This document shows, piece by piece, positions 25,179 through 59,447 of a stretch of 64,000 bases of DNA. Numbering within the stretch: the first letter of the stretch is position 1; each line of letters starts with the position of its first letter. Location: positions 25,759 through 89,758 of the IMG/VR virus record IMGVR_UViG_3300023179_000059; one strand, written 5' to 3'. Below the pieces are notes generated by a model. The model ran no database searches and was not told the DNA's origin. It saw only the letters and a program-made list of their open reading frames with translations. The translations under genes and the position numbers were made by a program. Source of the DNA: a virus (Duplodnaviria > Caudoviricetes).

Positions 25179-27539
25179 TTAAATTTCATGTATTGCGTCA
25201 ACAATAAAAGAATCATCTTTTCCAGAAACGCTACCACAAAAAATTAGATTATTTCCTTCATATAATACATATTTATACTTCTCTTTAACAGAAGGAAAAA
25301 CTATAACGCTATCTATAGAACATGTGTCATCTTCTAGTGTTAAAAATGACATCATTTTACCCTTTGATTCGCCCTTTGTTATCTTATAATCTGATAGTCT
25401 TTGTATGTTAGCCACAATACATATGTCTTTTCCACGTTTGCCATTAATAATTTCTTTACATGTTGTATTTGCAGCAGACGTATCAGAAACCTCAATTTTA
25501 GATAATGAAACTGGACATCCTAAAAACTTTGTTTCTTGATCTATTATCCAAGCTGGATCATCTTCTAGATCATATGGTGGATCTATTAATAATTGTATTT
25601 CATTTTGAATAATTTGTTTGCGTTCTACCTTACTTGTGCCACCGCCCTCTTTTTTGGTTGGTGCAAGAGCTTTTAAAGCATCAATTAAACTGGGCCACTT
25701 ATGATTATTATAGTTTTCAAATAACCAGTTCTTTTCACTATTGGTTAGATTTTTAAAGATATCATAGTCATAAAGTGCCTTATTTCTACTAATAATTTCT
25801 GAAAATCCCTTAATAAAACCTATTGATGCCAATGTTTTAAATGCAGAGGAATTTACTTTTGGAGATAAAAATAATAAGATTTCTAGCCAAGTAAATGACG
25901 TAATTTTTTTATTTAATTCCTTTTCTACTTCTTGTATGGATTCTATTAACTTGTCTCCAGTATTGCCAGTTAATGATTTTATATCTTTTATACCAAAGAA
26001 TATGGTGTTACCCTTTATATTAAACTTGATATTATAATTAGATAAATTTGGCGCTTTTACCTCTATATCAAAAAGCTTTGCTTCAGAAATTAATTCATAT
26101 ATTTCTCTATGTGGATCTTGCTTTTCTGTAGCATGATATAAATATGACAAAAAGAATTCTTTAGGATAATGTGCTTTATGATATGCACTTAGATAAGAAC
26201 ATACAGCATAACTAACGCCGTGAGACTTATTAAAAGAATATCTTGAAGACTTTTCAATCCATTCGAAGATTTGTTCTGCCTCTTCCTTTGTTACTAATCC
26301 AATACGTATAGAACCCTCAATGAATGCCTTTTTAACTTCATTCATAAGGTCGGCTTTCTTTTTTCCAATGGCTTTACGCAACGTATCTGCTTCTTGTAGA
26401 TTAAATCCAGCAATTTTTTGTGCTATACGCATACTCTGTTCTTGATAAATTAAAACTCCATAAGTTGGTTTTAATATATCTTCTAATGCTGTATGAAAAT
26501 ATGTTACATCTTCTTTACCATGTTTCCTATCTACATAATGTTGAGTCATAGATTTACCATCTGCATAAGCTTTTAAGCAATTATGAACAATAAAATTTCC
26601 TGCTATAAAATTATGATTAGGAGAAAGCATTGATATGTCATAAGTATCTTTTACTCCTACGGATTCTTTTCCAAGATAGGTTACCCATTCAATGTCATTA
26701 GATTCTGGTAATATATATTTATTTCTATGTAACATAATTTCTTCTCTTGATAATTTATTATTATTATGTAGCCTATGGCAATTTGGACATAAATACACTA
26801 GATTACTAAAATGATTGCTTGTGTGTCTATTACCATCAATATGATGAACATCTAAAGTTGTTTCTTTCCATTCACACACAACACATTGCTCTTCATAATG
26901 TTTATAACATATTTCTGAAAAATATCTTGTTCCAGAAATATTTTTCATTCTTGGGCCATCTTTTGTGTGTCTATTTGAAATGGTATTTTGCCTAATGTCT
27001 CTGTTATTTTGTTTTTTGAAACAAGCTATTCTATCGCCACATTGTAAATCTTTTAATTCTACCCATCCTTTATTTGTAAGTAATTTGTGATCAGAAGTAC
27101 ATTCTAAATCATACCAACTTGGATGAAGTTTGTGCGAAATATTCTGAGATGACATTGAATATTTTCTTATTTTTACCTTAAAACATTCTTTTTGTCCACT
27201 ATAAAAAATATGTAATATTTGGTTTTTTACTACGGTCATATCAGATTCATTTAGTGAAAATATTTCTGTTGGTTTATTTTTAGAATTATATATGTCTCTT
27301 ATTTTTTGTCTTATAAATCTATTTTTACCATCTTTGTGAATATATTTCGATATGGTTATAAGAGTATCTCCAGAAATACATCCCGGCCTAATAATACTTA
27401 TTAATGCACATAACTCTTCAATATTTTTAGGTTGTAACTTTTTTGCCCATGATTTACCAAGATTACTTTCTAGTTGAAAAATGCCCTTGGTTTTTCCATC
27501 GGCAAACAGTTGCCAAGTTTTTTTATCGTTATATTCCAT
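25179..27539 (-). CDS. dnaE: DNA polymerase III alpha, C-terminal half (fingers/HhH/OB), with intein
   Basis: GIFQLES, IRPG, TYGVLIYQEQ, LRKAIGKKK, YSFNKSH, FGIKDIK and a C-terminal OB fold. Confidence 0.9.
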   Translation of the reverse strand: MEYNDKKTWQLFADGKTKGIFQLESNLGKSWAKKLQPKNIEELCALISIIRPGCISGDTLITISKYIHKDGKNRFIRQKIRDIYNSKNKPTEIFSLNESDMTVVKNQILHIFYSGQKECFKVKIRKYSMSSQNISHKLHPSWYDLECTSDHKLLTNKGWVELKDLQCGDRIACFKKQNNRDIRQNTISNRHTKDGPRMKNISGTRYFSEICYKHYEEQCVVCEWKETTLDVHHIDGNRHTSNHFSNLVYLCPNCHRLHNNNKLSREEIMLHRNKYILPESNDIEWVTYLGKESVGVKDTYDISMLSPNHNFIAGNFIVHNCLKAYADGKSMTQHYVDRKHGKEDVTYFHTALEDILKPTYGVLIYQEQSMRIAQKIAGFNLQEADTLRKAIGKKKADLMNEVKKAFIEGSIRIGLVTKEEAEQIFEWIEKSSRYSFNKSHGVSYAVCSYLSAYHKAHYPKEFFLSYLYHATEKQDPHREIYELISEAKLFDIEVKAPNLSNYNIKFNIKGNTIFFGIKDIKSLTGNTGDKLIESIQEVEKELNKKITSFTWLEILLFLSPKVNSSAFKTLASIGFIKGFSEIISRNKALYDYDIFKNLTNSEKNWLFENYNNHKWPSLIDALKALAPTKKEGGGTSKVERKQIIQNEIQLLIDPPYDLEDDPAWIIDQETKFLGCPVSLSKIEVSDTSAANTTCKEIINGKRGKDICIVANIQRLSDYKITKGESKGKMMSFLTLEDDTCSIDSVIVFPSVKEKYKYVLYEGNNLIFCGSVSGKDDSFIVDAIHEI
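26580..27380 (-). mobile_element. Intein (267 aa) with HNH endonuclease in DnaE-C
   Basis: RPG|CISGD start, CTSDHK block B, TYDI..HNFIAGNFIVHN|C end; internal CVVC..DVHHIDGN..N..N..LCPNCH. Confidence 0.9.
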
Positions 27540-47424: not shown

Positions 47425-48069
47425 TCAATTACTTAATTTTTTAAAAATACGCTCTATTATCCACTTCAATATTATTGGCAATATGACATATATAAGTATA
47501 AAGCTTATTACAATAGAGCCGTGTTTATTTTCGTTGTTTACTATACTTTCTTTTACAAAACGATAACAATTTTTTTTCGAATCTTTATTTGATACTATTT
47601 CATCTACACTTACACCAGAGGCACAACACATTGTAACCCATTCGTTTGCATAATGCAAACACAAATTAGCAATTTTTCTACGTTCAGCGTCTGGATATTC
47701 TGCATTTATTTCATCATATAATTCTTCTAAAATGATAGGTGACGAATAAAAATTTGTTGTTTCTGATTTAGAATATTGAAATTTTAAATCTGGAAAATAC
47801 TTTATCTTTATAACTCCACCATCATTATCTAATATAATTTCTTGTATTAAAGCAGAAATAGTAATGAACTTTTTCCAGCTAATTTTTGGCAATTGATCAA
47901 CAAACTTTAAAGATATTTTATCTTCTTCAACAATACCAAATGTCATATTTAGTGGTTGTGGAAGTTTAATATATAAATCTTTAAAAGAATAGCCAGTTGA
48001 TGAAAATACTTTATCTAGTATTACTTTTAGATTTTTTATTGGTAGAATAATCATTGAATCAAGCTCCAA
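47425..48069 (-). CDS. Hypothetical protein with C-terminal TM helix
   Basis: IVISFILIYVILPIILKWII. Confidence 0.5.
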   Translation of the reverse strand: MELDSMIILPIKNLKVILDKVFSSTGYSFKDLYIKLPQPLNMTFGIVEEDKISLKFVDQLPKISWKKFITISALIQEIILDNDGGVIKIKYFPDLKFQYSKSETTNFYSSPIILEELYDEINAEYPDAERRKIANLCLHYANEWVTMCCASGVSVDEIVSNKDSKKNCYRFVKESIVNNENKHGSIVISFILIYVILPIILKWIIERIFKKLSN

Positions 48070-48500
48070 GCTAAACCACCAAAAGTATTTTTTAATTTTA
48101 CTTTTTCGTCTTCGCTTAGAACATGGTTTTTATCACCAAGTATATTTTCAAATAATTTTGTTAATTCTTCTCCAAGGCTAGTATATTTACCCTTCATAGT
48201 ATCGCCAAAGTAATACTCAGCGGCTAATACATATACATCATTTAATTTCTGACTATCTATAGTAGAATAATTAGATATTCTTTTGCTAAAACAATAATTA
48301 AATACGGCTAGTTTTGTTCTATCAAAATCATTTGTTACTAATTTGTTAACATGTTCTGTTATTTTTAATATTTCGTCACTTGGCTTATCAACATCAAGAT
48401 TAATACTTGGTTTTGGTTGTGGTTTTACTACTTTAAGTGGAAATAAACCAATTCCAATAAGCACTACGCCTAATACAATACCAAATATTTTTTTACTCAT
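48051..48500 (-). CDS. N-terminally anchored membrane/periplasmic protein
   Basis: MSKK + hydrophobic IFGIVLGVVLIGIGLF. Confidence 0.6.
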   Translation of the reverse strand: MSKKIFGIVLGVVLIGIGLFPLKVVKPQPKPSINLDVDKPSDEILKITEHVNKLVTNDFDRTKLAVFNYCFSKRISNYSTIDSQKLNDVYVLAAEYYFGDTMKGKYTSLGEELTKLFENILGDKNHVLSEDEKVKLKNTFGGLAWSLIQ

Positions 48501-48759
48501 CTGTTGACCTATTATTTAATAGTGGAAATACTTCATCTAATTTGTCACTAGCAGCATCAAAATTGTTTTTAACACATGATTCTTTTAATTTATACCATAA
48601 ATTTATCATTGTCAAAAAATCTTTTTCACTTGTTGTAGATGATTTATTATTCCAAAATAATATTCTAGATAATAAATATGTAATGTCTACGTTCATCATT
48701 ACTATCACTAGCACTCCAGCTAATACAAGTCCAATCCTTGTGTACATATCTAATTCCAT
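48493..48759 (-). CDS. Small membrane protein
   Basis: IGLVLAGVLVIVMM TM segment. Confidence 0.55.
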   Translation of the reverse strand: MELDMYTRIGLVLAGVLVIVMMNVDITYLLSRILFWNNKSSTTSEKDFLTMINLWYKLKESCVKNNFDAASDKLDEVFPLLNNRSTDE

Positions 48760-48763
48760 TGAT

Positions 48764-49045
48764 TTACCTCTTTATCGTTTGTGTAGCTCTACCGTGATAT
48801 GGACATTGTGTAGTGTGACTATCACCTTGGTTAATTAAACCAGTTCCTTTGCATGGACACTTAGCAGGATCTGGATCTGGACGAATAATATTATCTGGTT
48901 TAACATTTAATAATTTTTCTTCTGCTTTAGAAAATGCAGAATTTGCTTCCTCCACCATCGGAGTAACATCACTAAATGCTAAATCTATTTCAGAATTATA
49001 TGTTTGACATCCAGTTAATAAAACTAATAATAATAAATATCTCAT
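48764..49045 (-). CDS. Small lipoprotein with Pro/Cys-rich C-terminus
   Basis: Lipobox LLTG|C; PDPDPAKCPCKG..CPYH. Confidence 0.65.
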   Translation of the reverse strand: MRYLLLLVLLTGCQTYNSEIDLAFSDVTPMVEEANSAFSKAEEKLLNVKPDNIIRPDPDPAKCPCKGTGLINQGDSHTTQCPYHGRATQTIKR

Positions 49046-49254
49046 CAGCCACTCGTTACATTATAGTAATAAATATCATCAAAACGATTTGTTAGTCTTG
49101 CTTCTACTGTAGTGTATCCAATGCTCGTATCTAGAGTTGCATTAATTGATTCATATTCACCAGTACTTAAACAAGAAACTACAGTAGCCCCATTGTTTGT
49201 TACTTCTACTCCAGAAACTACATTTGTGCATACATCTGTTGTTGTAATTGGCAT
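49045..49254 (-). CDS. Hypothetical 69 aa protein
   Basis: AGGAG RBS; fills the gap between genes. Confidence 0.5.
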   Translation of the reverse strand: MPITTTDVCTNVVSGVEVTNNGATVVSCLSTGEYESINATLDTSIGYTTVEARLTNRFDDIYYYNVTSG

Positions 49255-49270
49255 TTTTTTCTCCTATTGT

Positions 49271-51192
49271 TTAGAACACTTTATCTAGTGTCCACTCTAC
49301 TTTCCTTGGTGGAAAGCCTTCTACATCACTAAAAACCCAAGAGCCATTAGCTGAAAGCATACCGGCAGCATCGCTTTCTCTAATCCAAAAACTACCTTCT
49401 GGTTGATCATGTCTAGTAGGCCCATTATTCCAAACTCCCCAACTATTCTGTACTAAAAATAAAGTTTCATTATATATTTCATGAGTATCATCCATTCCAA
49501 CCCATGCCATAGCATGTGACCAAGATCCAGATTGAGAAGCTATACCATATTTATCCCGTCTAGAACTAAATCCAAACATTGAACATACACTAATACAATA
49601 ACCATTGGCTATTGCATCTCTAGCTTGTTCAACTGTATTTATTAAACTTACAGTTTTAACTTTATTTTTCTGAGCTATTTCTATTAGTGATTTTGGTACA
49701 CCCCTTGAACCCCAACTAGCACCAAGTCTTCCTTGATATGATGATAAATCTATATCACCATATTTCTTTCTTAGTAATATACCACCATTTTGATTAACAA
49801 ATCTAGCGGCACCAGAACATGTCATTCCTTCTCCACCATGACCTCTAGATCCATATATACCTTCTGTTGCACCACGGGCAACAAATTCTTCACGTTCGCC
49901 ATTTATTATTTCACAACTACGTGTACAATCTATTGCATTACGAGTAGAGTGTGAAACACAGTTGTGGGCAATACACCCATTTGCTATAAAAGCATGTTCT
50001 TTGCAGTTCACGCCTATATCATAAACAATGTGCGGCCCTTCTTCTATTTTTATTTCACATACTGGTATAAATAATTCATCATTTATGATTATAGAATAAT
50101 TTTTCTGCTTATCATAAATACACACAACTCTATAAGACTGACTTTCTTTATATGCACCCCTTTTAGCTCTATAAAAATAGTTAATCGTTGGCTTGTATCC
50201 CATTTTTAAATATGAATAATACACGCCATATGCTAATGACCTAGAAGTTGAATCAAATATTGTTTTTCCATTTTTAGTAAAACCATCTGCGGATGTTAAC
50301 CCTTGTATTGTTTCTTTTGAACCAATAAACCAATTTGGGAAAGTTTTATTTTTTTGATTGTCATAACATATTGATCTTAACCATGATGCTAACTCTGGAC
50401 AATAACATCTTAATCTAAAAGCGGTTGTATTTTTACTTTTATAATCACATCTACGCGGATTAAATCCAAATTTAGTTAAGAAATTACTGCATTTATTAAA
50501 AAAGTCTACTTGGTGTTCAGCAAAAGTAATTTCTATATTTTTGTTATTACACCAACCATCACCCAAAAAATAACCTAAAAACCAAGTAAAATCTTTATCT
50601 TGAGTAAATCTATTTATTGGAGCATTTTCTACCTGTAAATTAATAGGTGTAATGACATAATCACCCTTTTTAATATCTTGTGCGGCTACCCATTTCTTAG
50701 TAATTACTTTTGTCTGTGTTGAACCATTATCTTGTTCTCTTTTCTTCCAATAAGAACTTGATGATCAGAAGTAACTTTAAGTGGAATACTACCCTTAGTT
50801 TTAATAGTTACCAATGGATTGTTAGATACTTTTACTTGCTTACTAATAACAGTCGTAAAATTACCATTACTTCCGTATATTTTGTCTCCAACTTCTACAT
50901 CCTTAATTTTTTTACAATATGCACTAACCACTATAGAGTTGCCATCAAAACAATCTCCGACTACCTGTCTTTCTGAGGGACCAAAGCCAGAGTCAAATTT
51001 TAATAAATTTTTAAATGGTAAAGCAAGTTTACCTTTACCAGTTTCATATAAGCTGTAAGCTGCCGCACCAAATAATGGGTGCGGCAACTCACCTAATAGC
51101 TTATCTGTATCTTCTGGATCACACCAAGATCCAACAAAGCCATTTTTATAAGCTTTTAGAAGATCAGAAGGTTTATTAAAATCTGTACTCAT
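49271..51192 (-). CDS. Papain-family (C1A-like) cysteine peptidase interrupted by an intein; single frameshift near 50740
   Basis: Exteins rejoin as ERQVVGD|CVSH; SWSHAMAWVG (His) and VQNSWG (Asn) complete the triad. Confidence 0.8.
49961..50952 (-). mobile_element. LAGLIDADG intein (~331 aa if one base is restored)
   Basis: CFDG start, VTSDHQV block B, FLGYFLGDG and QGLTSADG, VYDIGV..AFIANG.IAHN|C end. Span is 992 nt (3n-1). Confidence 0.85.
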
Positions 51193-51398
51193 TTTGTTAC
51201 CGCTGGACCCTTAACCCACTTAATAACAGCATCTAGACCAACTGTTATCACTGGTACTAATAATACTCCAACTGTGCCTAAGTCCACAGTATTTATGTTC
51301 TCCATGACGTATGTAAGAACAGCAGCAGTACCAACAAGAAGAGCATTTTTTGCTAAAGCGACCACATCGTTCATGTTTAGTGAAAATCTATCTGACAT
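51189..51398 (-). CDS. Holin-like 2-TM protein, 69 aa
   Basis: Two hydrophobic segments and a basic C-terminus; AGAGG RBS. Confidence 0.5.
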   Translation of the reverse strand: MSDRFSLNMNDVVALAKNALLVGTAAVLTYVMENINTVDLGTVGVLLVPVITVGLDAVIKWVKGPAVTK

Positions 51399-51400
51399 TT

Positions 51401-51988
51401 TTATACCTCTTTTGTTTCTGAAATGCTTACTAAAAATCCTCCTTGCTCACTATCTGATATCCTATATGGAAACCCCACTATACTAATGTCTTTACCAGTA
51501 TTCGTTTTTGTTTCTTTGTGTAATTTTCTATTTGTATTTAAACAAGACTTAAATTCTATTAGTAATTCTTCTCTATCTTCTTCTTGTATAAAATTTAACC
51601 AATCATATCCTTCTACATTATAAGACCCAACAAAATTAAAAAACAAGCTATTATTCCATACTAATCTTCCATTATTATCTGTCTCAAATAATGGAGTATT
51701 ACTATAATGTAACGCAGCTTTTGTTCTTTGTTCTATTATTTTTTGTCTTATTTCTATTCTATGGCAAGTTTTTCTTAAGTCTATTACAGCGTCCTTTAAA
51801 CTATTTCCACCATTTGTTGTTAATTCGGATTTAATAGTTTTTATTGAATCATTTACATTTTGATGATCGTTGATGAGTTGAATGACAGGTTTTACTATTT
51901 TTACCCAAATTAAACTAAAAAATGTGAATACCGCACCTAAAATACTAACGCTTATTGGTATATATTCTAATATTTCTTTTGATAGCAT
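51401..51988 (-). CDS. TM + coiled coil + PAS-like domain protein
   Basis: N-terminal TM; NGGNSLKDAV; then PLFETDNNGRLVWNN..VEGYDWLNFIQEEDRE PAS signature. Confidence 0.65.
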   Translation of the reverse strand: MLSKEILEYIPISVSILGAVFTFFSLIWVKIVKPVIQLINDHQNVNDSIKTIKSELTTNGGNSLKDAVIDLRKTCHRIEIRQKIIEQRTKAALHYSNTPLFETDNNGRLVWNNSLFFNFVGSYNVEGYDWLNFIQEEDREELLIEFKSCLNTNRKLHKETKTNTGKDISIVGFPYRISDSEQGGFLVSISETKEV

Positions 51989-52013
51989 GTTTATCCTTTC
52001 TTTTAGAATTTAA

Positions 52014-52039
52014 GGATGGCACCCCGAAGGGTGCCACCC
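52014..52039 (-). terminator. 11-bp hairpin with cUUCGg loop
   Basis: GGGTGGCACCC-TTCG-GGGTGCCATCC; weak U-tail (TTAAATT), so possibly leaky. Confidence 0.65.
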
Positions 52040-52057
52040 AAAACACACTACCTAAAC

Positions 52058-52693
52058 TCAGCTTTCGTATGAATCTTTTGCTTGATACTCGTCTGTTGTT
52101 GGCTCACCAAGAGCGCCAAAGTGATATGTTAGTTCACCCGGTACGCTACGTGTTGGGCTTGCAGCGTCGTCTGTGCCAGCGACGTTACCAGTTGTAGCCA
52201 CGTATGTAACGAGATTACCAGCACCAGCACCCTTTGTTCTGCCGGGAACAACACCGCTAGATGGTACAGCCAAGATATTATAAGTAGTAACGCCAAGTTT
52301 TCTTGTTGTTAATAGCTTATGAATTGTTGGTTGACCAACTCCAGCATATTGAGCGCCGGGAACATTTAGTAATGACTCTGAATCATTATTTACTTTACTG
52401 GCACTATCACCAGCAGCTCTCATAATGAAATTTCTTTCACCAGCATTAGCGTCTGGAAAGTATGCTAAACCACCTGTTCCAGCAGATTTAGCCTTTATAA
52501 CACCATGTGGATCAGTAAATTCATTACCAGAAGCATTGTTTTGAACTACTTTTGAGCCATATTCTGAACCAGTTGCTAGTTCGTTTACATTAAGAACCTT
52601 TGTCATTGGACTATCTGACAATGTTCCTCCAGCGACTACTGTGCCGCCATCATTTTTAACAGCATTTGCACTAACAGCTTTAGTTGTGGACAT
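52058..52693 (-). CDS. Gly/Ala/Thr-rich putative virion protein, 211 aa
   Basis: Own promoter, AAGGAG RBS and downstream hairpin. Confidence 0.5.
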   Translation of the reverse strand: MSTTKAVSANAVKNDGGTVVAGGTLSDSPMTKVLNVNELATGSEYGSKVVQNNASGNEFTDPHGVIKAKSAGTGGLAYFPDANAGERNFIMRAAGDSASKVNNDSESLLNVPGAQYAGVGQPTIHKLLTTRKLGVTTYNILAVPSSGVVPGRTKGAGAGNLVTYVATTGNVAGTDDAASPTRSVPGELTYHFGALGEPTTDEYQAKDSYES

Positions 52694-52758
52694 AATTTCT
52701 CCTTTAAATTTAAATTTAGATTATTTCCAAAGTCCTTTGTAAGTCCACTTCCTATAAA

Positions 52759-52767
52759 ATTATACAC
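52759..52767 (-). promoter_or_regulatory. Extended -10 promoter GTGTATAAT
   Basis: Same 9-mer as at 11636-11644; lies in front of an intergenic leader. Confidence 0.5.
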
Positions 52768-52768
52768 T

Positions 52769-53239
52769 TCATGCTAATTTTTTACCTAGATTTGTAATTA
52801 GCTTTTTGATTTTTTTCCTTGTTGTTTCCCTATTACTATTGATTTTTTTGGCTATTTCTTCTATTGTCATATTGCTCAATTTATACATAAATAGCTTTTT
52901 ATCTTCATCAGTCTTTAATTCATCCATAATATCTATCATAAAATATGGATCAGATTTTTTGACAATATTATCATGAAGTTTCTGGCTAAACTTACTATGC
53001 TTTCCAAGAAACTTTATTTCTTTTAAGCACTCAATAAAAACACCATTATATAAATATGTTGTAAATTTAGTGTTCTTTTCTGGCTTAAAATGGAGAAAAG
53101 ACTTCCAAAGAGCATTAAGTTGACAACTATATATAATATCTTTATCTAGTTGATTTGCAAATCTTCTAGAAGCCTTATTCATGATATTGACTATATCCTT
53201 ATTCTTCATAGCTAATTCAATTTTTGTATTTAAATCCAT
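52769..53239 (-). CDS. Phage sigma-70-family sigma factor (regions 2 and 4)
   Basis: LWKS..F.PEKNTKFTTYLY region 2; MTIEEIAKKINSNRETTR HTH. Confidence 0.7.
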   Translation of the reverse strand: MDLNTKIELAMKNKDIVNIMNKASRRFANQLDKDIIYSCQLNALWKSFLHFKPEKNTKFTTYLYNGVFIECLKEIKFLGKHSKFSQKLHDNIVKKSDPYFMIDIMDELKTDEDKKLFMYKLSNMTIEEIAKKINSNRETTRKKIKKLITNLGKKLA

Positions 53240-53240
53240 A

Positions 53241-53690
53241 TTATTTTCCTTTTAGTAATTCATCCTCTATTGTTTTTCTAACATCTCCAAAATCAAACAT
53301 ATTACCTATACCAATAAAAAATCTATATCTACTACAAATTTTTAAAACTTCGATACCCGGTGTACGATTTAACTTTTCTTTTATAATTGGTGTAATATCA
53401 AAATTAGTATGACCAATCCAACAATCATAATTAGATAACATAGTTACATCTTCTAATAATTGTTGAGAAACTGGCAATATGAAGGGCTTATTTATTTCTA
53501 TTCCAGTATTATCATTAAATATACTTTCTTCTTCTTCTTCAATATCTTCAATTTCATCTTCATCTTCCATTTGTGATATAGCATTATTTTTGGCTATTGT
53601 TTTCATTATATTGGATAAAATTGGTGAAGATAGTTGTTTTTCTATTAAGTCTTCATATTTTTGCCAACCTATTTTAAGTTTTTTAGCCAT
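53241..53690 (-). CDS. Hypothetical protein with acidic tract
   Basis: GGAGG RBS; EDEDEIEDIEEEEE. Confidence 0.55.
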   Translation of the reverse strand: MAKKLKIGWQKYEDLIEKQLSSPILSNIMKTIAKNNAISQMEDEDEIEDIEEEEESIFNDNTGIEINKPFILPVSQQLLEDVTMLSNYDCWIGHTNFDITPIIKEKLNRTPGIEVLKICSRYRFFIGIGNMFDFGDVRKTIEDELLKGK

Positions 53691-53706
53691 TATCCCCCCC
53701 TTTATG

Positions 53707-54093
53707 TTATCTTAACATGTCAGATGGTTGTATGCAAGGTTGTGAGCTTATAGAATCTTTATATGTATTTATAAATTTATTGTTTTCGTTTTTTGCTGCC
53801 TGTTTTGCAATATGTTGAATTAGTAAAATAACTAATTTTTCTTGACCGACCTTGATCAAATTTTCTTTAATTATATTTACTGTCTCTACATAACACTTAT
53901 CTTCAGATAAAACATCTAGAATTTGAAATAAAGAATTCATTGATTGTTCATCATATTCTTTAATGGCTATATCAACAACAACAGAACTATCTTTTTTTAT
54001 AAAGTATGTTATATTTGCAATTACTTCTTCTTCTAGATCAATGTGTTCTTTGTTAGTATTATTTATATTTTTAGATTTGAAGAAATTAAACAT
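53707..54093 (-). CDS. Hypothetical protein
   Basis: Coupled ORF. Confidence 0.5.
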   Translation of the reverse strand: MFNFFKSKNINNTNKEHIDLEEEVIANITYFIKKDSSVVVDIAIKEYDEQSMNSLFQILDVLSEDKCYVETVNIIKENLIKVGQEKLVILLIQHIAKQAAKNENNKFINTYKDSISSQPCIQPSDMLR

Positions 54094-55144
54094 ATTTTAA
54101 CACCATTTGTGCAGAGTTTTTCCAAGTATATTTATGTGCCGTCTCTATTCCGTGTTGGTTAATCTTTAGTTCTCCCATATTTTTAAGTTTATAGATATTT
54201 TTCATATGGGTGATTATATTATCTATTTGATTAGATCCTATCTTTGCCCATTTACCTATTTTTCCATGAAACCAAATGCCGTCATAGGCCAAAGTGTCTT
54301 CATCTATATCTATTAGATATGAATTATTATTATTACAAAATTCTAGATGTGCAGAATATTTAGTAGTTATAACACTTTTACCACATGCCATCATTTCCAA
54401 TAATTCTAAATTCCACCCTTCTGCTCTGGCCGGAAATATTCCACAATCTGTTTGGCACATAATATTATACACTTCATTTTGTGTTCTTGTTCTTTTAATA
54501 ATCTTTATTTTATCACCAAGTTTGCTATTTTTATATAGATTTATCCAAGATTTTTCCTGTTCTTCATTTAAAAATGGATTCTCGCACATCATCCATAATT
54601 CAACATTGTCTTGATTTATGAACGCTTTATTGAAAGCTTCTACTATAATATCATGTCCTTTTCTTATTTCCCATTTTCCACAATTAAAAAATATTGTTTT
54701 TTCTGATGCATTTTGTTCTTGAGGTTTAAATATATCAATATCAACGCCAAGTGGAATAACTGATACATTATTATTTGATATAGATATTTGATCTAATACT
54801 ACATCCTTGGCCCATTCTGAAGTTACAAATATTTTATCTAAATAAGAAAGATGATGTTTTTCTATATCGGAAAATTCGTTTAATTCAAAGAACGGAAAAC
54901 CAATTTTATTTCCCTTACCAATAAATTGTGCCATATCATGCTGATGCCATATTCTAATACATGGTGCATTAAAATCTGGCTTGATAGCGTTTGATAATGC
55001 TTTTCTTACTATATTTGCGTCTTCTTCGCTGGTAATTTGTATTTGACCTATAGGCCATAATGATACTTCTGGTAAGTTTTTTATTATATTAAAACCAGCA
55101 ATACCATATCCTAACTGATTTATTGGTGATATTATATTTATCAT
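54086..55144 (-). CDS. GT4 glycosyltransferase
   Basis: LGYG, PLGVD, GKWEIRKG, EGWNLELLEMMACG. Confidence 0.85.
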   Translation of the reverse strand: MINIISPINQLGYGIAGFNIIKNLPEVSLWPIGQIQITSEEDANIVRKALSNAIKPDFNAPCIRIWHQHDMAQFIGKGNKIGFPFFELNEFSDIEKHHLSYLDKIFVTSEWAKDVVLDQISISNNNVSVIPLGVDIDIFKPQEQNASEKTIFFNCGKWEIRKGHDIIVEAFNKAFINQDNVELWMMCENPFLNEEQEKSWINLYKNSKLGDKIKIIKRTRTQNEVYNIMCQTDCGIFPARAEGWNLELLEMMACGKSVITTKYSAHLEFCNNNNSYLIDIDEDTLAYDGIWFHGKIGKWAKIGSNQIDNIITHMKNIYKLKNMGELKINQHGIETAHKYTWKNSAQMVLKYV

Positions 55145-55686
55145 TTTATATCCTTAAAGAATAACCAGCGTTCTAATTGAACAGTTTTTTCTAAACTATC
55201 TATTACTTGAAGATGATTTATTATTTCTTCCATAGAGTTAAAAATATTTTCGTGCGGTAGCATAAAAAATAACCAATTTGGAGCTTTATTTTTTCCCTGC
55301 TCACACCATATTAATACTGGTTTTTTTTGTCTATTTGCAGTTACTATTTCTTCATAAGAGCCACACATATGTATGCTCATATCTATATTTGCTATGATAA
55401 AATCTGAAATATCAACACATCTAAGATCAACATTGCGAATAATACCATATTCTTCTCTAATTTTATCATATTGTCCAGATTGTTTATAAAATTCTATTTT
55501 AGATCTAGTATGTTCATTTTCTTGTATATTATCAATTTGTTTTTTGCATGGATCTAAAACTATAATTCCAAGATCTTCTAGGTGTGGAGTTATTCTTTCT
55601 CTCCATCCTCTACCACCATCTGGTACTCTATCCATAGCACCAACTAGGTAAGTTCTCATTCCACTAAGATTGTTTTTCAAAGCCAT
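55141..55686 (-). CDS. Nucleoside 2-deoxyribosyltransferase / nucleotide hydrolase-like
   Basis: YLVG.M, WRE..VLDP, DLRCVD.SD, GSYEE. Confidence 0.7.
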   Translation of the reverse strand: MALKNNLSGMRTYLVGAMDRVPDGGRGWRERITPHLEDLGIIVLDPCKKQIDNIQENEHTRSKIEFYKQSGQYDKIREEYGIIRNVDLRCVDISDFIIANIDMSIHMCGSYEEIVTANRQKKPVLIWCEQGKNKAPNWLFFMLPHENIFNSMEEIINHLQVIDSLEKTVQLERWLFFKDIK

Positions 55687-56077
55687 TATCTATACTCCAC
55701 CAAATTTTTTTAACACCAAGTGCGTTTAATATATGACTACATTGGTCACAAGGTTTACTACATCGTAATTCTCCACGCTTATTCAATCTAATTATAACCA
55801 TTTTTAGTGAGTCATCTACGTAATATTTTCCCCACAATCTAGAAATTAAATCAGTCTCAGCGTGTAAGTATGGATGATCTGTATCAGCATTAAATCTTTT
55901 AGCTAAAAACAGTGCTTGTGTATGAGTTTTTTCTGGATTATTTTGTCCTATCGCAAGAAGTCTATTCTTTTTATAACCAAATGCAAAGTGAAAAAACTTA
56001 TTCTTTGTTTGTCTAACCTCTTTTGCTTTTGGAAGTAGCGTTAATGCGATTTCAACTGATTCTGATATAATATTCAT
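55664..56077 (-). CDS. Zn-dependent cytidine-deaminase-fold protein
   Basis: LHAE...SKPCDQC. Confidence 0.75.
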   Translation of the reverse strand: MNIISESVEIALTLLPKAKEVRQTKNKFFHFAFGYKKNRLLAIGQNNPEKTHTQALFLAKRFNADTDHPYLHAETDLISRLWGKYYVDDSLKMVIIRLNKRGELRCSKPCDQCSHILNALGVKKIWWSIDNGFEKQS

Positions 56078-56493
56078 TTTATGTATACAAACTTAATAAA
56101 GTCTTCTATCGTTGATGGATTATGCTTAATAAAAATATCTTGTGTAATTCTCTTTGCTTCTGTTTTTTTGGTTCCTAGAGAAACCAATGCTAGAACACAA
56201 TCATTAAAAAGTTCTTGATTTATTACTATTTTCTTTTGTTGCACAACTGGCTTTTGTGTGGGACTAGTTATTTCTAAAGGAACAACACGACTCTTCTTAA
56301 CACTAGTTTTTCTTATTTTTGTATTGTCAACAAATTCAACTGACTTTTGAACATTGTCACTTATGTATCCTATCACATATTCATCGTTAAATGAAATACC
56401 TTTTCTCTTATTTGTAAATGAAAAGTATACAGTTAACAATGCAATAATAAGAACACCAAGTTGACCAACGAATGGATGTGGTTGTGGATTCAT
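56074..56493 (-). CDS. TM protein with C-terminal RuvA domain III-like module
   Basis: TM at aa 9-28; DCVLALVSLGTKKTEAK resembles RuvA EAxxALxxLGY. Confidence 0.5.
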   Translation of the reverse strand: MNPQPHPFVGQLGVLIIALLTVYFSFTNKRKGISFNDEYVIGYISDNVQKSVEFVDNTKIRKTSVKKSRVVPLEITSPTQKPVVQQKKIVINQELFNDCVLALVSLGTKKTEAKRITQDIFIKHNPSTIEDFIKFVYIK

Positions 56494-56512
56494 CTTTTTC
56501 TCCTTTCTAGCA

Positions 56513-56540
56513 ATTATACAAGAAGTATCGTCAAAGTCAA
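56513..56540 (-). promoter_or_regulatory. Sigma70-type promoter TTGACT-N16-TATAAT
   Basis: Followed by AAGGAG RBS; spacer contains TGACGATAC. Confidence 0.7.
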
Positions 56541-56550
56541 GCTTAGACTT

Positions 56551-56591
56551 AAAAAAAATGACCCGACAAGCGTCATGCTCATCGGGTCATT
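56551..56591 (-). terminator. Rho-independent terminator
   Basis: 10-bp stem AATGACCCGA/TCGGGTCATT plus T-tract on the minus strand. Confidence 0.8.
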
Positions 56592-56611
56592 AAATTAGAC
56601 TTAGTTAGTGA

Positions 56612-56947
56612 TCAGTCACTAATCTTTTCCTGTGTAGAGGAATTTGAAGGCCCAAGTGAAATTTCATCTGCCATTACGCATACTGAACTACGTGGATTTC
56701 CTTCCTTATCTTGATAGTCATCTATCTTTATCTTTCCCTGTACACCAACCAGTCTACCTCTTGTAAGATGATCCTTTAGAGCTTCCGCCATCTTACCAAA
56801 ACATAATACGTTTAGGTATAGTGTGTCGTCATTCCTTCGATCATTTACAGCCATTCTAAACTTAGCCATTGATGTACCCTTTTGGGTTACATTAAATTCT
56901 GCATCCTTTGTTAGACGACCACAACCTAGCCATGTATTAATATTCAT
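56612..56947 (-). CDS. ssb: Single-stranded DNA-binding protein
   Basis: GRLTKD, FRMAVN, FGKMAE, RGRLVGVQGKI. Confidence 0.9.
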   Translation of the reverse strand: MNINTWLGCGRLTKDAEFNVTQKGTSMAKFRMAVNDRRNDDTLYLNVLCFGKMAEALKDHLTRGRLVGVQGKIKIDDYQDKEGNPRSSVCVMADEISLGPSNSSTQEKISD

Positions 56948-56950
56948 TTA

Positions 56951-57268
56951 TCATACCTCCAATGCTGAACGAATTCTACCACGCAATACTTGTGTATTTC
57001 CACGATTGTAAGTACCAAGAGTGGCACTATATATTTGCCTAGCAAAATTCCTTGGAATGCCAAGTAGGCTAGCAGCAAATTCTACACCATCTCTTGTATT
57101 TTCAATAAATCCAAATCCAGACTTATGTGCAAGTGCTGTAATTGGGTTTAATGTAAAACCACGGGCTGGACCACTCTGAATAGTTGCCACAACCTTCTTA
57201 CCATTAACATCCCAATGATAAGAATTTGAAAGATTATCAAGCCTGTTATAAAAATCACTTACATTCAT
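56951..57268 (-). CDS. Hypothetical protein
   Basis: AGGAG RBS; coupled ORF. Confidence 0.55.
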   Translation of the reverse strand: MNVSDFYNRLDNLSNSYHWDVNGKKVVATIQSGPARGFTLNPITALAHKSGFGFIENTRDGVEFAASLLGIPRNFARQIYSATLGTYNRGNTQVLRGRIRSALEV

Positions 57269-57271
57269 CTT

Positions 57272-57517
57272 TTACTCTCCTAGATAGGGTTTACTTACAT
57301 TCTTACTAACAACATTATCTACAGAACTAGAGGTATTAAACTGTTGCAATAACTCTATACCATTCTTTAGATATTCTTTTAATCTATTAACTTCTTGATC
57401 AATTTCTAATTTTTTACTTTCAAGATCGTTAATAGTATTTTGCACATTTGCTAAATGTGATTGGCTCATTAAAATTAATTGATTTATTTTTTCTTGCATT
57501 TTATGTCCTTTACTCAT
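57272..57517 (-). CDS. Small coiled-coil protein
   Basis: Heptad pattern; preceded by TTGTTG-N17-TATAAT. Confidence 0.5.
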   Translation of the reverse strand: MSKGHKMQEKINQLILMSQSHLANVQNTINDLESKKLEIDQEVNRLKEYLKNGIELLQQFNTSSSVDNVVSKNVSKPYLGE

Positions 57518-57549
57518 AATATTATAGCAGTCTAACTAAATTACAACAA

Positions 57550-57744
57550 TCAAGTTTCTTCTGTTATATAACGTAAGACTTGCTGATGTGTCCAAGTACT
57601 TGTATATTCTCCAAAGGTCGATAATTCTGCAATTTCTTTATATTCTAGTTCTAGTTTAAGAATTAATTGTATTATTACTTCTTCATTGTGAGATATAATA
57701 CAATCATTTACTAATTTTCTTATTATTTCTGATCTTGTTTTCAT
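57550..57744 (-). CDS. Hypothetical 64 aa protein
   Basis: ATGA coupling. Confidence 0.5.
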   Translation of the reverse strand: MKTRSEIIRKLVNDCIISHNEEVIIQLILKLELEYKEIAELSTFGEYTSTWTHQQVLRYITEET

Positions 57745-58172
57745 ATTTCGTAATAATCTATTTCTATATTTGCTTCATTAAATAATTGTCTAGATAACTT
57801 AAAATCATTTTCCCATCTATCTATTTTATTTATTGGTGCAACAATTCTTTTTATACCAGATTGTATTATAATACCAGCACATCTTGGACAAGGTTCAAAT
57901 GGATAAGTATATAATGTACAATCTTCTAAGTTCCTGTTTGCAAAAGTAATTGCATTTATTTCTCCATGTACGATGATTTTATATTTTGTTTCTCTATCAT
58001 TTAGTCTTTCATCATCCTTTATTCCTTTTGGAAAACCATTATAACCAATAGAAACAACTCTGTTGTGTTTATCAGATATAACGGCACCAACTTTTGTAGA
58101 TGGGTCTAAACTCCAATTAGAAACAAATCTAGCTAATTCTAGAAATCTAACGTCCCACTTTTGTAAACTCAT
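57741..58172 (-). CDS. dCMP deaminase
   Basis: SLDPSTKVGAVI, GYNG, VHGEINAI, PCPRC. Confidence 0.9.
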   Translation of the reverse strand: MSLQKWDVRFLELARFVSNWSLDPSTKVGAVISDKHNRVVSIGYNGFPKGIKDDERLNDRETKYKIIVHGEINAITFANRNLEDCTLYTYPFEPCPRCAGIIIQSGIKRIVAPINKIDRWENDFKLSRQLFNEANIEIDYYEI

Positions 58173-58305
58173 ACCACAATAATCCTAAATTTGCAAATGT
58201 ATATCCTGCCCACATAACACTATGTGGATGATCTTTTTGTATATAACAAGAAATGCTCGTTATTGCATATAAAAATGTTGATATAATCACGCATGGAATA
58301 GCCAT
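58147..58305 (-). CDS. Small 2-TM protein, 52 aa (not in ORF track)
   Basis: MAIPCVIISTFLYAITSISCYIQKDHPHSVMWAGYTFANLGLLWYEFTKVGR*; TAATG coupling to guaC. Confidence 0.6.
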   Translation of the reverse strand: MAIPCVIISTFLYAITSISCYIQKDHPHSVMWAGYTFANLGLLWYEFTKVGR

Positions 58306-59447
58306 TATACACTTTTATCAAAATGAGTTCTATTGACCATAATAAATTCTGCACACTTTGGTAAATCTTTAAGTGATGTTGCTCCTATATAAGCACAGGC
58401 ACTTCTGATACCACCCATTATATCATTCATAATATCAGACGCACAACCTTTATATGGAATTTTAATTACTCTTCCTTCACTGGCACGATAATCTTTTATA
58501 CCACCATATTTTTCCTGTGCCTTATGTGAACTCATCCCATAAAATAGTAATGATATTTTTTTCTTTTCAGTATCATAACCGGGATCAATCGGTTGCCACC
58601 AATTGACAATATCTTTATATGAATCAATATCTGAGTTTGATTTTATGACTGCTGAACATTTGTATTCATATTCCCATTCTCCCTCGCACTGATCAGTTCC
58701 AGCAAGCATACCACCAAGCATCACGAAGTCTGCGTTTGCCGCAAAAGCCTTTACAACGTCTGAGGGTGTTCTACATCCACCGTCTGCACAAATCAATCCT
58801 AGACGCCTGTCTTCACTTTTTAAACCATGAGCAGCGTGTGAACATTCAGATATCGCAGACAATTGAGGAAAACCCACTCCAGTTTTTAACCTTGTTGTGC
58901 AAGCAGAGCCGGGACCAATACCAACTTTAACTATATCTACTCCACCGTGTAAAATAAGTTCCTGCACCATCTCTGGTGTACATACATTACCAGCCATAAT
59001 AATTGGCTGAATACCAAAAGTATCTCTAACTTTCCTACAATAATTCACAAAGTCATCAGTATATCCGTTTGCAACATCTATACAAATATTTGGTATAAAT
59101 CCAACATCGTCTATAATAAATCTTATCTTATCTAGATCTTCATTTTTAATACCAACGCTTAACCATTGAGAATTGACATTACAAAAATGATTTTGATAAT
59201 CCTGTTTAGTATAATGTTTATGTAGACATGTTATAGCTTTATATTCTGATAACTTATCGGCCATTTCAAATGTACCAGTGGAGTCCATATTTGCAGCCAT
59301 TATTGGCAATCCTGTCCACTGCCTTGTAGAGTGATAGAATGAGAACGTTCTATCAATACTTACTTCTTTCCTTGATGCTGCCCTAGATCGTTGTGGAACT
59401 AGTAAAACATCGTCAAAATCTAACTTAATATCATTTTGAATTTTCAT
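58305..59447 (-). CDS. guaC: GMP reductase
   Basis: LDFDDVLL, MAANMD, KVGIGPGSACTTR, ADGG, FYGMSS, YRASEG. Start at MKIQND (59447). Confidence 0.88.
   Translation of the reverse strand: MKIQNDIKLDFDDVLLVPQRSRAASRKEVSIDRTFSFYHSTRQWTGLPIMAANMDSTGTFEMADKLSEYKAITCLHKHYTKQDYQNHFCNVNSQWLSVGIKNEDLDKIRFIIDDVGFIPNICIDVANGYTDDFVNYCRKVRDTFGIQPIIMAGNVCTPEMVQELILHGGVDIVKVGIGPGSACTTRLKTGVGFPQLSAISECSHAAHGLKSEDRRLGLICADGGCRTPSDVVKAFAANADFVMLGGMLAGTDQCEGEWEYEYKCSAVIKSNSDIDSYKDIVNWWQPIDPGYDTEKKKISLLFYGMSSHKAQEKYGGIKDYRASEGRVIKIPYKGCASDIMNDIMGGIRSACAYIGATSLKDLPKCAEFIMVNRTHFDKSV

Follow-up and report, generated by a model that had tools for sequence, protein, structure and literature searches.

A putative phage lysis module built around a papain-family peptidase in uncultured aquatic phages

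The accepted view is that phages need a peptidoglycan hydrolase for lysis, and the locus described here raises the question of whether a papain-family protease could serve in its place. The window (the whole stretch of DNA analyzed, 64,000 nucleotides [nt] long and spanning positions 25,759 to 89,758 of IMG/VR record IMGVR_UViG_3300023179_000059) is a piece of a large uncultured water phage of ~160 kb, with a guanine-plus-cytosine (GC) content of ~30%. Between a sigma-like gene and nrdA runs a series of eight co-oriented, mostly overlapping minus-strand genes (51988 to 47425), among them a papain-type peptidase preceded by a holin-like gene. We interpret this series as a putative envelope-opening (lysis) module that is based on a latent papain-family peptidase and replaces the muralytic endolysin, a proposition on which we regard the evidence as evenly poised. 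Its central components are as follows.

49271 to 51192, minus strand: the whole interrupted peptidase gene (51192-49271), made up of N-extein, intein, and C-extein
50953 to 51192, minus strand: peptidase N-extein, 80 amino acids (aa), with a pro-region-like segment and the oxyanion-hole Gln, ending ..QVVGD (junction taken from the intein-less allele, L001:1261-2187)
49271 to 49960, minus strand: peptidase C-extein, 229 aa, starting at the catalytic Cys (CVSH) and holding the His (SWSHAM), Asn-Ser-Trp-Gly, and a predicted C-terminal docking tail
51189 to 51398, minus strand: 69-aa holin-like protein with two hydrophobic segments, the first weak and Ala/Gly-rich, and a basic C terminus
48051 to 48500, minus strand: 149-aa N-anchored protein with an N-terminal transmembrane (TM) segment, a Pro-rich linker, and a five-helix domain

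The peptidase is a C1-fold enzyme with intact Gln, Cys, His, and Asn catalytic residues. In an alignment of 45 diverse homologues, C81, H229, and W254 are invariant, and Q76, N252, and S253 are conserved in at least 90%. The intein-less allele scores 20.6 bits against a cut-off of 20.7 (E value of 5e-4) for Pfam family PF00112 (Peptidase_C1), and the C-extein alone has no match to PF00112. A profile built from the family finds weak matches in the PDB to papain and cathepsin K (E values of 1e-4 to 1e-3) and to xylellain, and phmmer finds no match there. The AlphaFold2 model (predicted local distance difference test [pLDDT] score of 93) adopts the two-lobed papain fold; its best Foldseek match is xylellain (3OIS; E value of 1.6e-10), on which VIA-align places 232 residues with a Z score of 21.4 and a root mean square deviation of 2.9. 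In these alignments, zymogen chains match the model from residue ~7 and mature enzymes only from residue ~51, so the N-terminal segment looks like a pro-region, and the first ~50 residues may form a pro-region-like cover of the cleft. The peptidases of the window clade have no signal peptide. An earlier note on this DNA had called the product a C1A cysteine peptidase, with which the papain fold and catalytic set agree. The gene is not a single open reading frame (ORF): it is split by an intein, and its two parts lie one base out of frame.

This is a large family, with 1306 clusters at 90% identity and 1535 at 50%, and it is absent from PHROGs and from 50,697 GenBank phage records, in which a tblastn search with the C-extein also found no match. 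Longer homologues carry N-terminal extensions in which Pfam recognizes no domain and which, thus, offer no informative fusion; there are, separately, phage proteins in which a C1-fold domain is fused to a peptidoglycan-binding or muramidase domain.

Conservation of gene order, which the earlier note had proposed as a check, extends to both related and distant phage contigs. Well over 100 viral contigs, from several phage clades, carry the conserved module, and the same neighbors recur in 81 close loci in two arrangements. In type A, that of the window, the genes for a PAS protein, the holin-like protein, and the peptidase are fixed, and 0 to 9 kb are inserted before the block encoding the 93-, 88-, 149-, and 214-aa proteins; in type B, the peptidase is followed by a TM-anchored homologue of the 93-aa protein, a different 62-aa protein with two TM segments, and then the homologues of the 88- and 149-aa proteins. 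Type B loci lack the 69-aa holin-like family, and their 62-aa two-TM ORF (..SRRFW..; L076:11351-11539), situated between the Cys-motif protein and the 88-aa homologue, looks like a nonorthologous replacement of the small membrane protein. In a second clade, of ~160-kb phages, the peptidase is ~40% identical, the holin-like, 93-aa, and 214-aa proteins all have homologues, and an exported protein of 140 to 156 aa is encoded directly upstream of the peptidase; in phages more distant still, weaker matches suggest that a gene for the same partner, with a signal peptide or lipobox, again precedes the peptidase gene. Small lambda-like phages have the block immediately before the genes for the gpA-type terminase and portal, and a position upstream of the terminase is the classic one for a lysis cassette. 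Across several unrelated phage architectures, the peptidase gene never occurs in the structural module and always lies among genes for membrane or exported proteins.

The contigs that carry the peptidase family range from 30 to 72% GC, and the family is therefore not tied to one unusual envelope. A host among the Planctomycetota, suggested previously on account of their protein-rich envelope, has no supporting evidence and is at odds with this range and with the ~30% GC of the window itself. An archaeal or wall-less host was set aside, given that the genomes code for sigma-70-type factors, DnaE, and proteins with lipoprotein or twin-arginine translocation (Tat) signals. The structural module of one complete relative (G002, loci L086-L090) has weak matches to Por_Secre_tail (a type IX secretion system sorting domain; E value of 5.5e-4), DUF285, and BspA-type leucine-rich repeats, which may hint at a host in the Bacteroidota.

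Canonical endolysins were sought in relatives of the window phage, and none was recognizable in two complete relatives and 12 others; the earlier note had stated that no muramidase or amidase is visible in the window. Five relatives were searched, of which two, of 166.6 and 161.1 kb, are complete and have terminal repeats. With positive controls working, these five lack PF00959 (Phage_lysozyme), PF01510 (Amidase_2), PF01520 (Amidase_3), PF01464 (SLT), PF13539 (Peptidase_M15_4), PF01551 (M23), PF01183 (GH25), and PF05257 (CHAP), as well as PF00877 (NlpC/P60) except for one sub-threshold match in a 592-aa ORF; searches with PF00182 and PF05838 gave no match, but their positive controls were silent as well, and these two are uninformative. 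In the complete genome G002, ORFs of 80 aa or more were scanned with Pfam, leaving out two ORFs at segment boundaries and ~20 presumed-known ORFs of the replication and glycan operons; no wall hydrolase is among the matches listed, which do include a trypsin-like peptidase, a terminase, a tape-measure domain, and, in the structural module, a ClpP-type protease. PF00959, PF01510, and PF01464 are absent from G001, the nearest relative record, and Phage_lysozyme, Amidase_2, SLT, and M15_4 are absent from nine genomes of the distant clades. Canonical lysins are, in sum, consistently absent across 14 genomes.

The 69-aa protein encoded immediately before the peptidase has the makeup looked for in a holin, being a small protein with one to three TM segments and a charged C terminus encoded beside the enzyme, and its stop codon overlaps the peptidase start by 4 nt. 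Homologues occur in 92 loci, those of distant clades included, and its neighbors in the Atlas are named "holin family." The family Phage_r1t_holin (PF16945) was considered and rejected, with no match at an E value of ≤1 in 11 related genomes and an Atlas feature similarity of only 0.88.

Structure prediction connects the peptidase to the 149-aa protein at the other end of the module. The model of the 149-aa protein contains a compact five-helix domain (pLDDT of 87.7) for which Foldseek returns nothing at an E value of ≤0.001 (the nonsignificant rows include the type VI secretion immunity proteins Rap2a/b, at an E value of ~3). When the peptidase was modeled together with partner residues 35 to 149, the interface score ipSAE was 0.76, compared with 0.10 for the best control; a score of 0.76 is reached by 58 of 80 solved complexes and by 2 of 110 mismatched pairs, a calibration that is approximate because custom alignments were used. 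At least 93% of contacts recur between runs (partner pLDDT of 88), and the predicted interface sets the last 13 residues of the peptidase (297 to 309), disordered in the monomer model, into a groove formed by partner helices 83 to 125. The prediction supports, but does not show, docking of the C-terminal tail of the peptidase onto the apparently exported domain of the 149-aa partner.

The 149-aa protein is homologous to the exported protein encoded directly upstream of the peptidase in distant clades (hhalign, 94%; E value of 1.2e-7), and these distant homologues have short N termini resembling signal peptides or containing a lipobox. Some distant peptidases carry a candidate export signal of their own: family members L121 (7244-8266) and L117 (7899-8912), which are flanked by a gene for a signal-peptide protein before and a gpA-type terminase gene after, begin with RRNFLK and RRDFIK at residues 3 to 8, followed by a hydrophobic stretch. 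The Pfam TAT_signal family (PF10518) matches distant members at an E value of 0.1, with 13 bits against a cut-off of 22.7, and one member with the Tat motif is 34% identical to the window type (E value of 7e-49); the motif is absent from the window peptidase and its 270 closest homologues. Together, the exported-type partner homologues, the predicted docking, and the Tat-type members point to the periplasm as the place where the peptidase acts. Of 142 ORFs neighboring the peptidase block in distant loci L099-L137, 3 belong to the thioredoxin family, and one such gene lies in the early region of G002; that thioredoxin acts as a reductant keeping a periplasmic cysteine protease active is speculative.

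Under the lysis interpretation, the peptidase would accumulate in the cytoplasm with its N-terminal ~50 residues covering the cleft in the manner of a pro-region, until the 69-aa protein, possibly timed by the membrane-anchored cytoplasmic PAS protein, permeabilizes the inner membrane. The freed peptidase would then dock through its C-terminal tail on the helical domain of the 149-aa partner at the periplasmic face and could there cut peptide bonds of the envelope, either the cross-links of peptidoglycan or the proteins linking wall and outer membrane; a Tat-type signal would, in some distant relatives, take the enzyme to the periplasm without a holin. The earlier note had read these genes as a noncanonical lysis cassette, and of that reading the papain-fold peptidase beside a holin-like gene, the synteny, and the lack of a canonical endolysin in relatives have held up, whereas the proposed host, spanins, and promoter have not. 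A bolder claim, in which our confidence falls somewhat short of even, is that the module represents a new class of phage lysis, combining a latent C1 protease, holin-like release (or Tat export), and a tail-capturing periplasmic adaptor, that replaces muralytic endolysins in a very large, global set of aquatic phages with hosts spanning 30 to 72% GC, the enzyme gene being so constrained that inteins repeatedly home into both of its catalytic motifs.

In the window, one such element occupies the peptidase gene and contains a break in the reading frame.

49961 to 50952, minus strand: intein (Hint plus LAGLIDADG homing endonuclease), 992 nt, with Cys1, TSDH, two LAGLIDADG motifs, a terminal HN, and Cys+1
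50707 to 50764, minus strand: zone of the −1 frame break, open in both frames, in a loop after block B and containing the run GGAAGAAAAGAG

The intein retains its diagnostic motifs (CFDGNS..., block B TSDH, and ...AHN/C, the slash marking the splice junction) and scores 25.1 bits against a cut-off of 22.5 for LAGLIDADG_3, with Hint and Intein_splicing falling under their Pfam cut-offs. In G001, all module proteins are 97 to 100% identical to those of the window, and the peptidase gene is uninterrupted (309 aa, with 98% identical exteins); the junction in the intein-less allele L001 reads ..VVGD/CVSH.., which fixes the insertion point directly before the catalytic Cys. This Cys is also the +1 nucleophile of the intein, and splicing would have to precede any peptidase activity. 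The 992 nt of the intein are not a multiple of three, and the reading frame breaks once: the upstream ORF encodes 162 aa, consisting of the 80 peptidase residues followed by CFDGNS..., and stops at 50706-50704, while the downstream frame is open from 50764, has no start codon before an internal TTG at 50566, and runs through the intein end (...AHN) and CVSH... into the remaining 229 peptidase residues. The locus as assembled, with this one-base break, would therefore yield two fragments and no whole active enzyme. Comparison with the family member P0123, which has an intact intein at the same site (53 to 58% identical), shows that the two frames meet in the loop after block B, so that a single −1 shift at or near GGAAGAAAAGAG suffices to explain the break. 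The frameshifted 162-aa product is found on 1 contig only, compared with 30 and 46 contigs for identical copies of the neighboring 149-aa and 69-aa proteins, and IMG/VR contains no close copy of the window intein (best match, 23% identity); this therefore appears to be a rare allele whose break is either an assembly error in the A-run or a lesion of very recent origin. In the family as a whole, inteins are present in 31 of 150 cluster representatives (P0121-P0270), one or two in each, at two recurrent spots, around the catalytic Cys (C81) and around the catalytic His (H229).

Several observations weigh against a lytic role. C1 enzymes are not known to attack anything other than proteins. Neither Pfam nor PHROGs has a family that matches the holin-like protein, whose weak first TM segment resembles that of pinholins, which do not release folded 35-kDa enzymes. 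By the positive-inside rule, the orientation of the 149-aa protein in the window clade is ambiguous (24 versus 26). The peptidase is 65 to 89% identical within this phage group, similar to NrdA and far above its neighbors (30 to 60%), and this degree of conservation, with inteins at both catalytic motifs, is more typical of core replication or assembly enzymes than of endolysins; its gene is, moreover, broken in the window genome. Failure of Pfam to detect an endolysin does not prove absence, and one of the G002 scans covers the best 25 of 35 families, ten weak families lying outside it. Finally, the papain-like enzymes that cleave peptidoglycan (NlpC/P60, CHAP, and amidases) cluster apart from papain and the cathepsins (JBC 2023; PMC10318531). 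The strong conservation and the intein hot spots, together with the missing signal peptide in the window clade and the ambiguous topology of the partner, would also fit a cytoplasmic protease for the maturation or processing of phage proteins, such as a giant tail protein cut at [FYM]-A-x-G-G, with the membrane neighbors either unrelated or acting as a tether. Seven of the nine [FYM]AxGG motifs in the G002 proteome of 53 thousand aa do fall within one 2256-aa tail protein (ORF 92836-99606, loci L087-L088), the motif is likewise clustered in the tail proteins of G003 (six; 52600-59004) and G007 (five; 50868-58262), and papain-like viral proteases classically cleave at Gly-Gly sites. We nevertheless judge this explanation distinctly unlikely: the P2 residue preferred by C1 enzymes is usually hydrophobic and not Gly, no protein of G010 has two or more such motifs (the G010 peptidase ORF is not cleanly called), the structural module already contains a ClpP-type prohead protease, and the peptidase gene lies outside that module, always with membrane or exported proteins, in several unrelated architectures, its distant members having Tat-type signals and its partner's homologues signal peptides or lipoboxes. 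Considered for itself, the clustering of the motif in a tape-measure-like protein suggests repeated processing sites or a structural repeat.

Some of the same evidence can be turned toward a role in the envelope other than lysis, in which the module trims host surface or periplasmic proteins (for superinfection exclusion, takeover of transport, or processing of the phage's own exported proteins) and an unrecognized enzyme cuts the wall. A periplasmic partner, relatives with Tat signals, the general character of C1 enzymes as proteases of proteins, the separate grouping of papain and cathepsins, and the structural neighbor Cwp84 (an S-layer-processing C1 enzyme; Z score of 17.3) all accord with such a role, and the many unannotated ORFs of these genomes could hide a novel endolysin. 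That an accessory function would be so universally conserved, or bear inteins, is not normally the case, however, and the tight coupling of the holin-like gene to the peptidase, the location of the block beside the terminase in lambda-like phages, and the absence of canonical lysins in 14 genomes also make us regard it as unlikely. The broken gene poses a different problem, in that the peptidase of the window genome may be a dead pseudogene, inactivated by intein and frameshift in a defective or dying variant, which we take as a serious, if minority, possibility. The out-of-frame 992-nt intein, with a downstream part that lacks a start before the TTG, the occurrence of the frameshifted product on a single contig, and the absence of a close intein copy in IMG/VR would all follow from it; yet the lesion is single and lies at a short A-run of the kind where assembly and sequencing errors typically occur, no splicing or endonuclease motif is damaged, nor is either extein, the exteins being 98% identical to the intein-less allele, and low-level −1 slippage on A-AAA-G may occur.

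The remaining genes of the lysis module proposed here, and the signal that precedes it, are as follows.

51401 to 51988, minus strand: 195-aa membrane protein with an N-terminal TM segment, a coiled-coil stretch, and a PAS-like cytoplasmic domain
49045 to 49254, minus strand: 69-aa soluble ORF without a TM segment, conserved in 56 loci
48764 to 49045, minus strand: 93-aa exported protein with lipobox LLTGC, a Pro-rich linker, and a CxCxGxG...CPYH cysteine motif
48493 to 48759, minus strand: 88-aa protein with an N-terminal TM segment, N-out/C-in (Lys/Arg richer after the TM segment in 56 of 58 homologues)
47425 to 48069, minus strand: 214-aa C-terminally anchored protein, overlapping the 149-aa gene by 19 nt and found with the module in 75 loci
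52014 to 52039, minus strand: terminator-like hairpin with an 11-bp stem, a UUCG loop, and a weak U tail, after the 211-aa gene

All seven ORFs listed in the earlier note are on the minus strand at the coordinates given there, and the operon runs on past its range into the 214-aa protein (48069-47425). Start and stop codons within the module overlap or lie 2 to 16 nt apart, and the genes, therefore, form one unit, a tight operon. The 195-aa protein is richer in Lys and Arg after its TM segment in 34 of 38 homologues, corresponding to an N-out/C-in topology by the positive-inside rule, which places the PAS-like domain in the cytoplasm. Its TM segment is as previously described; the PAS assignment has no Pfam match at an E value of ≤0.1 and a weak match to PHROG 1009, and its backing comes from protein-language-model neighbors, the ten best Atlas neighbor clusters with assigned families all belonging to the PAS clan (0.92 to 0.99) and the nearest ones being viral clusters with PAS Pfam families (scores of 0.95 to 0.99). 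We consider the protein a candidate timing regulator of the holin-like protein. The lipoprotein and the N-anchored protein had been thought spanin-like, but of 70 distinct homologues of the 93-aa protein only 11 have a lipobox, the others having a TM anchor or a signal peptide, and the model of the 149-aa protein is a compact helical bundle, not an extended coiled coil; with the lipobox not conserved, a two-component spanin is not established. The 93-aa protein has a conserved C-terminal PDPDP-x-K-C-x-C-K-G-T-G ... C-P-Y-H motif like the DnaJ-type CxxCxGxG zinc knuckle, which is unusual for a periplasmic or lipoprotein domain.

Of the two upstream signals proposed earlier, the hairpin is confirmed and the late-type promoter at ~52759 is not. 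The hairpin (52039-52014), which ends 26 nt before the module start, has a folding energy of −23 to −26 kcal/mol (minimum free energy of −25.9) and a z score of −3.85, none of 200 shuffled sequences being equally stable, and its U tail is weak; the motif near 52759 occurs once, and promoter-like matches are as frequent as expected from shuffled sequence. The 211-aa protein encoded before the hairpin (52058-52693, minus strand) is rich in Gly, Ala, and Thr and has a strong ribosome-binding site, and its gene is kept beside the sigma-like gene in 121 loci; a Pfam match to Mtd_N (the N-terminal domain of a tropism determinant) among the neighboring ORF sets is not assignable to it. Elsewhere, the window codes for rIIA/rIIB, a class I ribonucleotide reductase, a split DnaE-type polymerase, a helicase, a UvsX-like recombinase, the sigma-like factor, and numerous glycosyltransferases.

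A search of a searchable literature library found no description of this module; several known systems resemble it in part. The enzyme shares with xylellain of Xylella fastidiosa (3OIS) and the C1A zymogens (procathepsins B, K, and L and propapain) the papain fold (VIA-align Z scores of 21.4 and 17 to 20, respectively), the Gln/Cys/His/Asn set, and the NSWG motif, and its N-terminal ~50 residues align with the part of their pro-region that covers the cleft; it differs in being only 13 to 18% identical to them, phage encoded, without a Sec signal, and equipped with a C-terminal docking tail and a predicted exported docking partner, all within an operon of holin-like membrane genes. As in lambda S-R-Rz/Rz1 and in pinholin S21 with its signal-anchor-release (SAR) endolysin, translation of an enzyme is coupled to that of a small two-TM protein with a basic C terminus, more genes for membrane proteins, lipoproteins, or exported proteins come next, no further endolysin is found in the genome, and the block is terminase-adjacent in lambda-like relatives. 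Unlike in those cassettes, the enzyme is a C1 protease and not a glycosidase, an amidase, or an M15, M23, or NlpC-CHAP peptidase, extra PAS and tail-anchored proteins are present, and the holin-like protein belongs to no described holin family.

The CHAP and NlpC/P60 endolysins are also cysteine peptidases of the papain-like superfamily, which phages use to cut the stem peptides or cross-bridges of peptidoglycan, but they fall in another structural cluster (PMC10318531), and the window-type enzyme has the full two-lobed C1 architecture. The N-terminal export signals of distant family members would, like those of Sec-signal and SAR endolysins, bring the enzyme to the periplasm before the membrane is permeabilized; the signal is, however, of the Tat type (RRxF[LI]K), confined to distant clades, and sub-threshold for Pfam TAT_signal (E value of 0.1). 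Similarly, inteins in core phage genes (terminase, DNA polymerase, ribonucleotide reductase, and helicase) combine Hint and LAGLIDADG domains at a catalytic motif of a conserved protein for which an intein-less sister allele exists, whereas here the intein sits in a papain-type peptidase of a lysis-like module, the enzyme's own nucleophile serves as the +1 Cys, two sites recur, and the window copy is frameshifted.

Abundant uncultured phages of lakes and oceans that have no recognizable hydrolase thus keep a papain-type protease in a holin-like operon. If this protease opens the envelope, it would be either a new kind of endolysin or an enzyme directed at a new envelope target, and, if true, a protease-plus-adaptor logic would be added to lysis control and would explain the lysis genes that annotation pipelines find missing. 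An intein at the catalytic Cys would, in addition, make the activity of the enzyme depend on protein splicing.

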